From IMG/VR virus record IMGVR_UViG_3300018488_000078: a stretch of DNA of 11,494 nucleotides. One strand, written 5' to 3'. Shown here piece after piece: positions 3,150 through 11,353 of the stretch. The notes beneath the pieces were generated by a model. It saw nothing but the letters and a program-made list of their open reading frames with translations, made no database searches and was not told where the DNA came from. The stretch is from a virus. Lineage: Duplodnaviria > Heunggongvirae > Uroviricota > Caudoviricetes. Position 1 is the first letter of the stretch, and every line of letters starts with the position of its first letter. The position numbers and the translations under genes were made by a program.

Positions 3150-3431
3150 TTACCGCCGCAATCGTTCCGGCTTCTTCCACTGGTAAGTATTTTTCGCGCT
3201 CTCCCTCCGTTGTTGAGAACGGCGACGATATGCCAGCAACTCAAGGACTCTTGTTCGTATGTTGCGCATATCCACGCCGTTAAGCTCAATACCGTCACGG
3301 CGCATCACCTCAGCCACTACACGCACATAATTATCTGCGGTCACGCTGTCCGGCTGCGTGGCCTGTTCGTCATGCTGCTTGCTGATTCCACAAGCACGGC
3401 GGATTAATCGCAGTATTTCGGATTCAGTCAT
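3150..3431 (-). CDS. Hypothetical protein, 93 aa, in the position where a large terminase gene would follow the small terminase
   Basis: ATG at 3429-3431 starts 11 nt after the TerS stop; weak Shine-Dalgarno, so translation may be coupled. Product MTESEILRLIRRACGISKQHDEQATQPDSVTADNYV... has no recognisable domain by eye. It is far too short to be a large terminase. Confidence 0.45.
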   Translation of the reverse strand: MTESEILRLIRRACGISKQHDEQATQPDSVTADNYVRVVAEVMRRDGIELNGVDMRNIRTRVLELLAYRRRSQQRRESAKNTYQWKKPERLRR

Positions 3432-3442
3432 AGCGTACTACG

Positions 3443-3985
3443 TTACTTATCTTTATTCGGCTGCAACTTATCCGGTACGTTTCCGGCAGTTTCCATCAGA
3501 TAATCGGACAGCATCAGCGGTATGTTTTCGTCAAGTTTTGCGCATGCGTTACAGGCTCTGATAACTTCTTTTTTCAGTCCATCCAGCATAGACGGCTTCA
3601 TGTCGGGAAACTTCCTTGTCATGGCAAGCGGCAGGCTGTCCATGATTGAAGAAATCTGACTCGCCAATTTTGAAAGCACGTATATACAAAACGCTGTATC
3701 AATAACGTCGCCGCGTTCGCGCTCGTTTTTAAGCTCCTGCGCCTCTGCCTGTGCTGTCAGCAATCTGATCCTGACTCGTAGGAGTTCATCATCATCAATC
3801 TCGCCTTTGTCGTCTGTAATCTGGTTAATTGCATTGCTAACCCGATTGTCTATTACGCTGGCAACATCATAAAACGCCTCGCGGCCTTTACGTTCAACGG
3901 GAGTCACTCCCCACTTGTCGAACGCTGTCGCACTTACACGGCAGCTTTGCGCCATGTTTTTTTTGTTCATCAGGTGCGATTTCAT
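3443..3985 (-). CDS. Terminase small subunit, Nu1-like, with divergent N-terminal (DNA-binding) region
   Basis: C-terminal two thirds align by eye to lambda Nu1: RLLTAQAEAQELKNERERGDVIDTAFCIYVLSKLASQISSIMDSLPLAMTRKFPDMK versus lambda RLTRAQADAQELKNARDSAEVVETAFCTFVLSRIAGEIASILDGLPLSVQRRFPELE. The N-terminal ~70 residues differ. Start chosen at ATG 3983-3985 (GGGGA 6 nt upstream); GTG at 3995-3997 and ATGs at 3968-3970 and 3953-3955 are alternatives. Confidence 0.85.
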   Translation of the reverse strand: MKSHLMNKKNMAQSCRVSATAFDKWGVTPVERKGREAFYDVASVIDNRVSNAINQITDDKGEIDDDELLRVRIRLLTAQAEAQELKNERERGDVIDTAFCIYVLSKLASQISSIMDSLPLAMTRKFPDMKPSMLDGLKKEVIRACNACAKLDENIPLMLSDYLMETAGNVPDKLQPNKDK

Positions 3986-4096
3986 CAATATCCCCACTTA
4001 AGTAATGTTTCAGGTTGGTGTATTGGCTTTATCTTTTCCTTTTTATTCATAGAGATAGAGCGAACAACAAAACCACCACCAGCACCCGAAAAAGGC

Positions 4097-4160
4097 TCAT
4101 AAATAGCGAAAACCCGCGAGGTCGCCGCCCCGTAGCCTACCGGATCACCGGAAAGGACCC
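4097..4160 (-). other. Lambda-type cos site: cosQ-like segment (4141-4160) and cosN with 12-nt cohesive-end sequence GGGCGGCGACCT (4119-4130); cosB side divergent
   Basis: Minus strand reads GGGTCCTTTCCGGTGATCCGGTAGGCTACG-GGGCGGCGACCT-CGCGGGTTTTCGCTATTTATGA. The cohesive-end 12-mer and flanking cosN sequence match the lambda left end as I recall it, and the upstream segment matches the lambda right-end/cosQ region except for a few bases. Below 4097 the sequence departs from lambda cosB. Confidence 0.85.
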
Positions 4161-4186
4161 GCCAGCCAGAGCGGGCCCTAATTTCA

Positions 4187-4570
4187 TCAACCAATCAGCT
4201 TATAGCGACCATCCCGTGCATTGCGGCGTACACGCTCAATCTTGAGGCATAGCGCCGCATCTGGCTTTTTTGGGACAGGTACGCGGCAATATTCAGAAGC
4301 GCGAGGAATATTATTTATCCAGTCGATCACTTCACTTAAATACCAGGCCTTACGCCCTTCCGTAACCTGCACACGCTCCGGGAACTCTCCACTAGCCTCA
4401 AGGTTTAGCAGTGTACGACGACTCAGGGTTGTAATTTCCATCACCTGATTCATATCAACAAGGCGCTCGCTTAAACACATTTTGTCAGCGATAGCTTTTA
4501 ATTCCTCTACAGCTGGATTCGGGTACATCATTTCGGCAATTGGCTTAAGGTCATTGTAATCATTCTGCAT
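4187..4570 (-). CDS. AlpA-family (MerR-like HTH) DNA-binding regulator with ~40-residue N-terminal extension
   Basis: ATG 4568-4570 with GGGGGA upstream. Segment VMEITTLSRRTLLNLEASGEFPERVQVTEGRKAWYLSEVIDWINN fits the AlpA/prophage CP4-57 regulator HTH pattern. Stop at 4187-4189 lies 26 bp from cosQ. Confidence 0.65.
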   Translation of the reverse strand: MQNDYNDLKPIAEMMYPNPAVEELKAIADKMCLSERLVDMNQVMEITTLSRRTLLNLEASGEFPERVQVTEGRKAWYLSEVIDWINNIPRASEYCRVPVPKKPDAALCLKIERVRRNARDGRYKLIG

Positions 4571-4581
4571 TGTATCCCCCT

Positions 4582-9688: not shown

Positions 9689-9691
9689 TAA

Positions 9692-9874
9692 TTACACCCC
9701 TTTTAATTCATGTACTGCTGCAATAATTACATGTGATAAACCTGCTTTACCGGAATTACTGATTACTGAATCAATCGCCGCTTGCATATTAACGGCCTTC
9801 ACGTTCTGCGTTATTCCGATGGTGTAGCCGCGTTTATTAACTGCACGGGCAAATACGCGGAAGGTTTTAAGCAT
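9692..9874 (-). CDS. Hypothetical protein, 60 aa, first gene of the leftward operon
   Basis: ATG 9872-9874 with AGGGAG 7 nt upstream; sits just after the 380-bp divergent intergenic region. Confidence 0.45.
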   Translation of the reverse strand: MLKTFRVFARAVNKRGYTIGITQNVKAVNMQAAIDSVISNSGKAGLSHVIIAAVHELKGV

Positions 9875-10254
9875 GACTCACTCCCTGGCGGATTTTTGCA
9901 GCGAATACAGCAACACAACCGGACGGGCAACGGCTACGCGCTTCGCGTTCCGTCCAGGCGGTTACGTGGATGATTTGAGATTCTCCGGCACTCAGTGCCA
10001 GAAAACGCCACACAAAGGCCGTTTGTGTGTGTACAAGGTGTGGTATATGATTTACAGCAACCATAACGGCTCCTAGTTTACGTTGTTGGTTAGACGCCCC
10101 GTATGTGTTCCCAGCACTGCGGGGCGTTGCTCTTTGTATTTCAACAATCCTTTCGGTGTGTTTCATGTTATGAGCGCATGAAACACACGTCAAGGCTTTT
10201 TGTATTTCTTTTTTTGTGTATACTGAAACACACCGATGATTAGGAGTTTCAGAA
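9875..10254. promoter_or_regulatory. Divergent regulatory intergenic region with palindromes and a terminator-like hairpin
   Basis: 12-bp perfect inverted repeat GTGTGTTTCATG / CATGAAACACAC (10156-10167 and 10177-10188) 67 bp upstream of the RHH gene, with the half-site GAAACACAC repeated at 10225-10233. Palindrome GGCACTCAGTGCC at 9987-9999. G/C stem ACGCCCCG / CGGGGCGT (10094-10101 and 10120-10127) followed by a T-rich tail. Candidate -10 TATACT at 10219-10224. Confidence 0.5.
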
Positions 10255-10560
10255 ATGGCAACGGCTAACAAAAACGCAAAATCACAACTGACAACTGTCA
10301 GAGTCCCACTAGATGTTATGCAAGGGATGGAATCCGTTAAGCTGGACGGTGAAAGCAATGCCGGATTTATCGTAACCGCCATGCGCGGAGAAATAGCCCG
10401 CCGCCAAGCAGAAGGCAGCGGAGAAAATCCCCTTGTGTCGTCACTGGATGCCCTGGCTAAGGTCGAACAAATCGGCATCAAAGCAGCCGAGGAGATCGGG
10501 CAACTCGTCACCGTCGCGCGTGAAGAACTCCAGCGACGCAAGGTCAAAGAGCATGAATAG
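10255..10560 (+). CDS. Ribbon-helix-helix (Arc/Mnt/CopG-like) transcriptional regulator, putative
   Basis: ATG 10255-10257 with AGGAG 8 nt upstream. Segment TTVRVPLDVMQGMESVKLDGESNAGFIVTAMRGEIARRQ fits a beta-strand, helix, G-x-N turn, helix pattern typical of RHH proteins. Confidence 0.55.
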   Translation: MATANKNAKSQLTTVRVPLDVMQGMESVKLDGESNAGFIVTAMRGEIARRQAEGSGENPLVSSLDALAKVEQIGIKAAEEIGQLVTVAREELQRRKVKEHE

Positions 10561-10617
10561 CCAATATCAGCGCCATAGTTTGAGGAACACAGGCGCATTG
10601 CTTTACAGGACAGCACC

Positions 10618-10797
10618 ATGAGCGACACAGAATCAACCAAAACACCATCACCAACTCGTAAGAGACGACGCAAAAATATAGCGCATGAACATGAATCAGA
10701 AAGATTCGCACCTTGTTCGTTTGCTCTTGAGAAATTCCTTAAAGAGCACAGGAAAAAGCTCTCGTTGCAAACCTTGGAACGAACCAAATCTGACTGA
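10618..10797 (+). CDS. Small basic hypothetical protein, 59 aa (below the ORF-track size cutoff)
   Basis: ATG 10618-10620 with AGGA 7 nt upstream; hand translation MSDTESTKTPSPTRKRRRKNIAHEHESERFAPCSFALEKFLKEHRKKLSLQTLERTKSD; stop TGA 10795-10797. Confidence 0.3.
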   Translation: MSDTESTKTPSPTRKRRRKNIAHEHESERFAPCSFALEKFLKEHRKKLSLQTLERTKSD

Positions 10798-10893
10798 TCA
10801 CATTGCCCACCAGCCGCAAATGTGGCATTGTTGGTGATGCTTTTGTTTTCCCTTGTTCCCACTGGCGACCCTTTTGCGGTAGCCTTTGTTTTG

Positions 10894-11353
10894 TCACTGA
10901 ATGCGGTTACCAAAGTAAAACTCAGGCTGATATTCACGTATCAGCGTTTTTTCTTCTTCCTCCAGCTCACGCTTTTTGCGCTTACATGCCTGTAGCTCCC
11001 TCCCCTTCTCGCTGGCACTTATTTGATATTGCTCTTTACGGCGGGAAAAATCCTGTAATGCACCCCACGGGATACCATAAGCCCCCGTTTTTCTGATACC
11101 TGGTATCACATTTCTGAATACCCAGTTACTGAAACGATGAGCAAATGTGCCAGGCGTCGTTGCTTTGCGGCTGCGGGCTATTAGTTTGTAGAAACCTGAC
11201 TCAGAGATAATTCTCATATTCTGATTTCCTCCTGGGGTGTAAGTTAAATTTACTCCCTTTTCATCATCATCAAGCATCTGCAACGCCGTACGCGAATTGG
11301 TTAGTTCCAGCGCAGCACAAACATCTTTTGCAACAAACCACGGATCGCCGTTC
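10894..11353 (-). pseudogene. Bro-N domain antirepressor-like gene, 5' end cut by the IS element
   Basis: The minus-strand frame stays open from the IS junction: ...NGDPWFVAKDVCAALELTNSRTALQMLDDDEKGVNLTYTPGGNQNMRIISESGFYKLIARSRKATTPGTFAHRFSNWVFRNVIPGIRKTGAYG. This is a typical Bro-N pattern (DGEPWFVAKDV..., ESGLY.LI.RSRK, WV...V.P.IRKTG). The ORF-track start at 11283 is a TTG inside the domain, not the real start. Confidence 0.75.

Follow-up and report, generated by a model that had tools for sequence, protein, structure and literature searches.

A capsid, cos and small-terminase module without an integrase reads as part of a helper-embedded satellite in the portal gene of a lambda-like prophage

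What kind of genetic element carries a capsid shell gene, a cos site and a small terminase but no large terminase, portal or integrase? The question is raised by the viral DNA IMGVR_UViG_3300018488_000078, a stretch of 11,494 nucleotides (the window, by which we mean this stretch at its full length), in which an earlier note made from the letters alone had delimited such a satellite-like module at 3150-11353. We are highly confident that the module is part of a phage satellite of about 10.9 kb, which interrupts portal gene B in a lambda-like prophage at about codon 278 and is co-oriented with the late operon, and we hold with equal confidence that the satellite was inserted by its own tyrosine integrase. 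It is a helper-embedded phage-inducible chromosomal island (HE-PICI) of the site B:Phage_portal_2:241 and as such has already been described and individually catalogued.

The boundaries of the element became apparent from comparison with lambda and with complete genomes. Positions 1-2340 match lambda with 98% DNA identity; gene C is encoded there, and of portal gene B only the C-terminal half. The lambda alignment ends at 2340, and the GC content changes there from about 0.6 on the left to about 0.47 on the right. DNA about 98% identical to positions 1-11353 was found in 51 of 5,426 complete Escherichia coli genomes; beyond the right end of the window, these relatives carry genes for AlpA and a tyrosine integrase, followed by the N-terminal half of B. 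The insert in EC93 measures 10,886 bp and is bounded by the 8-bp core AAGGCGAT within B. Alignment of lambda B to both EC93 flanks revealed a 13-bp overlap with the core, read as ATCGCCTT, at both junctions, and joining the flanks without the insert restored lambda B. At the integrase-side junction of EC93 the repeat of the core covers 8 bp, or 14 bp with one mismatch. The two portal fragments in full copies match positions 2-239 and 238-354 of the Pfam profile. The window itself holds one att junction only, the other being taken from full-length copies, and the satellite extends in it from 2341 to about 11350. The limits given in the earlier note therefore had to be moved: the element starts at 2341, next to the core at 2333-2340, and position 11353 marks the break caused by an IS3-family insertion sequence (IS) in a Bro-N gene, not the end of the element.

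No integrase is encoded in the window because of this IS3 insertion and the window edge. All full-length copies examined contain, immediately beyond that edge, an integrase with Arm-DNA-bind_3 and Phage_integrase domains and AlpA alongside, and the claim that the element has no integrase was thereby overturned. Inspection of complete genomes for an integrase and att repeats, a check that had been proposed, recovered both in full-length relatives such as EC93. A second doubled TGTATTGC arm motif is located on the integrase side in EC93 (L001 32082-32101) and is co-oriented with the window copy of the motif. The HE-PICI-specific doubled motif TGTATTGCnnnnTGTATTGC was thus seen on both arms. The arm motifs lie about 78-97 and 129-149 bp from the core, in agreement with the published values of 81 and 132 bp (PMC10111431). 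The clade placement of the integrase follows the listing of the same element in PMC10111431.

Homology to all full-length copies stops at 11353-11356. The last 141-144 bases of the window belong to an IS3-family element, and IS3-family transposase regions in 3,573 genomes match the last 155 bases. The window copy is damaged by this insertion in the Bro-N gene, which is intact and encodes 192 aa in EC93. The left end of the IS3-family element starts with TGAACCGCCCC, and its transposase open reading frame (ORF) begins at about 11408; an IS3-family insertion in Bro-N was present in none of the 51 matching complete genomes.

Gene C (261-1580) and the portal half-gene (1561-2340) are parts of the helper prophage and lie outside the satellite. 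In EC93 gene C is annotated as S49 peptidase, and RefSeq labels the product of 1561-2340 in relatives as a portal protein without N-terminus. Both EC93 and strain 210205630 carry the satellite between the two portal gene halves within a full lambdoid prophage. Upstream, this prophage has W, A, Nu1 (nohD), the lysis genes and Q; C, D, E, FI and the tail genes follow downstream. The helper terminase genes are about 98% identical to those of lambda. Q, the lysis genes and the head genes are outside the element because they belong to this surrounding prophage. Reading the element as an intact lambdoid prophage was rejected, as the Q, lysis, head and tail modules are all located outside the att sites. 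The earlier statement that portal and protease are missing is correct for the element itself but not for its surroundings, where the helper portal half-gene and gene C adjoin on the left. Likewise, the same gene order does occur within lambdoid prophages with a complete head module, which had been named as an observation against a satellite, but it forms a discrete att-flanked insertion that splits the portal gene.

Tommasini, Mageeney & Williams (2023, PMC10111431) described HE-PICIs as satellites that occupy 14-15 sites in lambdoid prophages, where they lie inside late genes and share their orientation. In our case the late gene B is split and has lambda-type flanks, the att block is found at both junctions and the doubled motif is present. 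Excision would restore B, and no replacement sequence is carried. The element shares with the HE-PICIs of site B:Phage_portal_2:241 the 8-bp core, the co-orientation with the late operon, the doubled arm motif and the order of four zones. Supplementary File 1 of PMC10111431 lists the copies in CP015912, CP011416 and CP028192 as 11-kb B_Phage_portal_2_241 HE-PICIs, named Eco4028.11 (CP015912.1), Eco2613.11 and Eco8563.11.B_Phage_portal_2_241, with the identity block aaggcgat. These three copies match the window at about 98%, and the published block is the reverse complement of the core AAGGCGAT. The window copy differs from the catalogued copies by the IS3-family insertion in Bro-N and by ending before the integrase.

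The core set that SatelliteFinder uses for Type A PICIs of E. coli consists of integrase, AlpA-type regulator, primase-replicase, capsid morphogenesis gene and small terminase (PMC10085698). Four of these five components were found in the window and the integrase in full copies. Together with the HE-PICI catalogue and the parallels in EcCICFT073 and the clone D i2 PICI (see below), this contradicts the earlier impression that the layout falls outside the described families. The underlying idea of a PICI-like satellite with its own replication and borrowed helper parts was well founded and is supported by the integration, replication and packaging modules. A known satellite can be mistaken for an integrase-less orphan module when it is cut by a window edge and an insertion sequence, and a satellite that holds the helper portal gene hostage until excision is already published biology.

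Genes were called by an ORF scan combined with profile searches (Pfam, PHROG, NCBIfam), and their coordinates are compiled in Table 1. Every gene of the minus-strand list proposed for 3150-9874 was recovered at its place, as were the iteron origin and the lambda-type cos. The complete copies display an integration zone (int, AlpA), the Bro gene, a replication zone (primase-helicase, iterons, SSB) and a late zone, in this order. Within the late zone, capsid, decoration and AlpA-like genes are followed by cos, TerS and ORF93. The key genes are all on the same strand as B. The iteron region contains six direct-repeat families and 16 inverted pairs. Like that of other Gram-negative PICIs, it is located 3' of the primase gene. 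The primase-helicase scored 108.4 bits against the P4-family primase model TIGR01613, whose cut-off is 108.7. A P4-like satellite was rejected: Pfam and PHROG searches gave no match to Psu, Sid or Delta, and the P4-type character is confined to the C-terminal domain of the primase. Between the att sites, the ORF and profile searches detected no gene for a large terminase, portal, protease, head-tail adaptor or connector, tail protein or holin.

Table 1. Features of the window, with coordinates counted from its first letter.
Feature	Position	Strand	Basis
Gene C, S49 protease/scaffold	261-1580	-	Peptidase_S49, E 7.5e-44; 98% DNA identity to lambda
Portal gene B, C-terminal half	1561-2340	-	Phage_portal_2 profile positions 238-354 only
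att core, downstream satellite junction	2333-2340	-	AAGGCGAT on minus strand, ATCGCCTT on plus strand
Doubled HE-PICI attP arm motif	2415-2434	-	TGTATTGCagtgTGTATTGC
Gene-free 3' tail	2435-3149		tandem 54-nt units, near-palindrome
ORF93, conserved last gene of E. coli satellites	3150-3431	-	phrog_1561, E 1e-55; no Pfam family
Small terminase TerS, full-length, Nu1-like	3443-3985	-	Phage_Nu1, E 3.5e-24; phrog_57
Putative satellite-specific cosB	3986-4096	-	unrelated to lambda cosB, which is longer
cosQ and cosN, lambda type	4097-4161	-	65 bp, 95% identity to lambda and EC93 helper cos
AlpA-family regulator of late zone	4187-4570	-	Phage_AlpA, E 7.6e-9; phrog_2790 (excisionase and transcriptional regulator)
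gpD-like head decoration protein	4582-4923	-	HDPD, E 4.5e-15
gpE-like major capsid protein	4933-5973	-	Phage_cap_E, E 3.8e-41
SSB	6191-6613	-	SSB profile, E 5.5e-16
Small conserved ORF	6610-6861	-	phrog_1231
Replication origin iterons	6967-7195	both orientations	GGTAGAGG/CCTCTACC, at least 12 copies
Primase-helicase, P4/D5 type	7207-8961	-	D5_N, DUF5906, Pox_D5
DUF4222 protein	8958-9257	-	profile search
DUF4222 protein (as above) and three small ORFs	8958-9874	-	Pfam and PHROG searches
Icd-like small protein, first gene of leftward operon	9867-10064	-	NF033153 phage_ICD_like on EC93 copy
YlcI/YnfO family protein, divergent	10255-10560	+	NF041551; EC93 annotation
Bro-N domain gene, 5' end cut by insertion sequence	10894-11350	-	Bro-N profile positions 37-96 only
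IS3-family insertion sequence, left end, not satellite	11351-11494	+	last 155 bases match IS3-family transposase regions

The packaging region combines a lambda-type cos with a divergent small terminase. The cohesive end GGGCGGCGACCT (4130-4119, minus strand) is identical to the 12 nt of lambda, and on the lambda map the segment 4097-4161 corresponds to about -29 to +35. Similarity of the cos alignment to lambda is lost after about +35, where the clone D i2 PICI still matches. The satellite TerS comprises 180 aa and is 38% identical to lambda Nu1, with the alignment extending through the C-terminus; its closest phage relative is N15 gp1 with an overall identity of 47.6%. The DNA-binding part is 29% identical to lambda Nu1 and 53% to N15 gp1, and the C-terminal part is about 45% identical to both. 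According to the literature, the C-terminal region of Nu1 is the region that binds gpA. Most economically, the arrangement would be read as a satellite TerS that acts with a private cosB and directs the helper gpA to a lambda-type cosN. Our literature search for experiments on TerS-gpA pairing at the satellite cosB found none. In one relative with a diverged portal gene (L018) the helper TerS is 46% identical to the satellite TerS.

Comparison with known systems pointed out what is shared and what is particular. The founding HE-PICI, Eco567.11capE, is likewise about 11 kb long and located in a lambdoid late gene, and has a Phage_cap_E homologue, a primase and a lambda-type cos, but it resides in gene E whereas the present element resides in gene B. 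Eco567.11capE (11capE) reportedly lacks terS and has a 258-bp cos region in common with its helper (PMC10111431). In contrast, the B-site element has only the 65 bp of cosQ and cosN in common with the helper and possesses a full-length TerS. The available part of PMC10111431 does not discuss TerS and cosB of the B-site group. The model Gram-negative PICI EcCICFT073 (PMC6092414, PMC6739421) resembles the B-site element in its integrase, AlpA, primase with origin, lambda-type cosN and non-lambda cosB, and its helpers are lambda or phi80. Its capsid (c1499) and head-decoration (c1500) genes are also found beside a lambda-type cos (PMC6092414). However, EcCICFT073 occupies a chromosomal site, is not prophage-embedded and encodes no TerS; instead, RppA (144 aa) binds the helper TerS. 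Rpp proteins of 144-153 aa consist of a winged helix-turn-helix domain and a coiled-coil and have no TerL-binding part. An Rpp-type cos PICI was ruled out here, as a 180-aa Nu1 homologue follows cos and a PDB sequence search with TerS gave no meaningful match and no Rpp chain. The predicted TerS-based packaging is the point at which the element departs from both EcCICFT073 and 11capE.

The closest parallel in gene order is the clone D i2 / i14 PICI, which is inserted in an IS110 transposase gene and differs from the B-site element in integrase and target. The clone D i2 PICI matches in the order of Icd-like gene, small ORFs, DUF4222 gene, replication protein, SSB, major capsid protein (MCP), decoration protein (Dec), regulator, cos, TerS and ORF93. 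The DNA-binding parts of the two TerS proteins are 94% identical and the cos DNA is 86% identical, whereas the replication protein of clone D i2 is a RepA-type helicase instead of a D5-type primase, MCP and Dec are only 54-55% identical and there is no shared 3' tail. N15 has a short cosB (single R3) as in the satellite but is a complete phage that encodes a large terminase itself, and its cohesive end differs from that of lambda, which the satellite keeps exactly. The pac-type SaPIs also use a satellite small terminase to redirect the helper large terminase. They differ in headful (pac) packaging, Gram-positive hosts, unrelated proteins and a capsid size that is set by CpmA/B instead of a homologue of the capsid protein.

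The capsid protein of the satellite is 42% identical to lambda E and the decoration protein 38% identical to lambda D. None of the capsid proteins encoded in 50,697 phage records exceeded 42% identity to that of the satellite. MCP and Dec are intact in satellite lineages that differ by 45% and are therefore under selection. The gpE-like and gpD-like proteins may serve to form a shell of satellite size or to remodel one. Window and EC93 copy are 99.5% identical in the late module (window 3150-7000), and this module alone was detected in 263 of the 5,426 genomes.

A possible life cycle can be drawn from the sibling 11capE and from lambda biology. In 11capE, the first event is excision of the composite of prophage and satellite, which then replicates; the satellite leaves it at about two hours (PMC10111431). 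By analogy with lambda, the integrated B-site satellite would keep the helper from making portal protein. Upon induction, the prophage-satellite composite would excise and replicate, and late read-through together with AlpA would turn the satellite on. Its excision would restore B and allow replication from its own origin. The satellite TerS, whose DNA-binding domain is N15-like and whose C-terminal part resembles Nu1, would bind its own cosB and recruit the helper gpA, which would cut the lambda-type cosN and use the lambda-type cosQ. Satellite DNA would then enter heads that are closed by the helper portal and joined to helper tails.

We put forward only tentatively, and consider rather doubtful as a whole, the joint proposal that TerS replaces Rpp and works with a private cosB and the helper cosQ/cosN, that a gpE/gpD-like shell forms on helper portal and scaffold, and that ORF93 and the tail constitute an undescribed module. 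If it were true, capture of the lambda gpA by a satellite TerS would be a strategy not yet dissected by experiment in cos satellites of E. coli. An own shell on helper portal and scaffold would represent a halfway stage between classical PICIs and capsid-forming PICIs (cf-PICIs). ORF93 and the tail, with its units of hairpin and IHF site, would be a functional module common to PICIs, HE-PICIs and cf-PICIs with different integrases.

Several points weigh against an embedded, functional satellite at this locus. The window contains no integrase and a single att junction, so that membership rests on the near-identical full-length copies, and the IS3 insertion may have inactivated the window copy. 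Pairing of TerS with the helper large terminase is not assured because identity to Nu1 in the gpA-binding region is only about 45%. Deletion of the capsid or the decoration gene of EcCICFT073 did not relieve interference, and this island uses phage-sized heads (PMC6092414, PMC6739421), which leaves a small-capsid role unproven. The experiments of PMC10111431 cover the sibling 11capE and not the B-site element, and 11capE gave no particles or plaques. Moreover, some helpers are decayed, for example the EC93 prophage with an internal stop in E.

In the most probable of the alternatives, the DNA is the same satellite by descent but has become an immobile fossil in a defective prophage and has no present function. 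We judge this possible, though unlikely. The IS3-family element breaks Bro-N and parts the integration zone from the rest, other copies bear IS66 or IS4 insertions (H20), frameshifted Bro-N genes or large deletions (L034), pseudogenes occur in some helper prophages, and many helpers look truncated according to Tommasini et al. (PMC10111431). Yet all other element ORFs in the window are intact, and neither the near identity of the late module to the EC93 copy nor the intact MCP and Dec proteins of diverged lineages speak for decay. The insertion sequence adds only about 1.3 kb and would not necessarily block excision if the integrase lies beyond it. Fossil status is possible for the window copy and would leave the identity of the element unchanged.

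It is very improbable that the insert is an ordinary lambdoid mosaic (early genes plus a head module that was duplicated and has diverged) and no separate mobile element. The location inside a lambdoid prophage, the capsid, decoration and Nu1 homologues of the lambda family and the lambda cosN would suit such an origin, but the flanks join exactly at an 8-bp repeat to give lambda B, and an integrase, AlpA, a primase and an origin are all provided by the insert itself. The same insert also occupies portal genes that are only 60-70% identical to lambda B (L018, L023, L030), a related late module resides in a chromosomal PICI away from any prophage, and the phage records did not contain the capsid gene at more than 42% identity. 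Slimmer still is the chance of a cf-PICI, which builds the whole head itself and steals only tails: the element does encode a major capsid protein, a decoration protein and a TerS of its own and has ORF93 and parts of the 3' tail in common with the cf-PICI of CE10, but the head genes listed above as missing between the att sites would be needed, and the adjoining portal and protease genes are those of the helper, 98% identical to lambda.

ORF93 is about 80% identical across the HE-PICI, the chromosomal clone D i2 PICI and a cf-PICI (L008 6332-6613; L004 9001-9282) and in each of the HE-PICI, PICI and cf-PICI compared it comes last, behind the terminase gene or genes. Its homologues fall into 977 protein clusters, every one of which is named hypothetical. 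An AlphaFold2 model calculated with 21 close homologues displayed four helices at a pLDDT of 72. Foldseek comparison of the model with PDB structures yielded nothing below E = 2, and a PDB sequence search with ORF93 found nothing meaningful.

ORF93 and the att core are separated by 809 bp without genes. Tandem 54-nt units occupy 2778-2901 (repeat region 2750-2960), and each unit consists of a 5-6-bp hairpin, followed by TTTCGAAA and by a perfect match to the IHF consensus AATCAAnnnnTTA. The hairpin stems vary by unit and element (CCCCC/GGGGG, CCTGC/GCAGG, TTCGCC/GGCGAA and ATTCAA/TTGAAT). The tail has a stronger tendency to fold than shuffled controls on both strands, the z-scores being -4.2 and -3.7. 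Of the 5,426 genomes, 1,607 contain pieces of the tail in unannotated DNA, which was the 3' end of a satellite wherever checked, including a different PICI in O157:H7 and the cf-PICI in CE10. Units related to the 54-nt repeat were found on 26 IMG/VR contigs, and a degenerate pattern of the repeat had no match in a one-genome-per-species collection. A literature search on the repeat sequence retrieved nothing relevant. An oriT-like role and a terminator battery were considered for the repeats, with no evidence for either. The tail also contains a near-perfect palindrome of 26-32 bp, TCGATATGGGGATCCCTATATCGA, at 2519-2550, of which several copies are present in the tail of a different O157:H7 PICI (L006, around 6811-7461).

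Searches for further functions added little. An Rfam search of the whole window at E <= 1 gave two chance microRNA matches only and no immunity RNA of the C4/isrK type. PADLOC, run on ten element proteins, detected no defence genes and a sub-threshold mad3 match on the primase. The labels gained from NCBIfam were limited to the Icd-like, YlcI/YnfO and P4-primase proteins. The translation of the Icd-like gene is intact in the window. A stop-free frame of 356 codons on the minus strand (9867-10937) runs antisense over the YlcI/YnfO gene and has its end within the Icd-like gene. The translation of this frame is rich in Ser, Cys, Leu and Arg, relatives annotate the last 65 codons only, and the frame looks like an antisense artefact.

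Some observations concern the helpers and the variation among copies. The EC93 helper's major capsid gene E (L001 17838-18863) is a pseudogene with an internal stop but is intact in 210205630, and the EC93 prophage is probably defective to judge from this sequence. The diverged portal genes that hold the satellite are situated at L018 10456-11271, L023 4263-4943 and L030 9718-10418. The proteins of these satellite copies are identical to those of the window, which suggests that the satellite may be able to use helpers beyond close relatives of lambda. Positions 1-4982 of L034 represent a deletion derivative, in which the late module from MCP to ORF93 with the tail is fused to an N-terminal portal fragment and the replication and integration zones are lost. 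Mismatches between the window and the EC93 copy cluster at 6500-8000 and 9500-10000 with 25-50 per 500 bp, that is in the origin and the 3' part of the primase gene and in the small ORFs, compared with 0-5 per 500 bp elsewhere in the element. This clustering points to a probable recombinational patchwork among satellite lineages.

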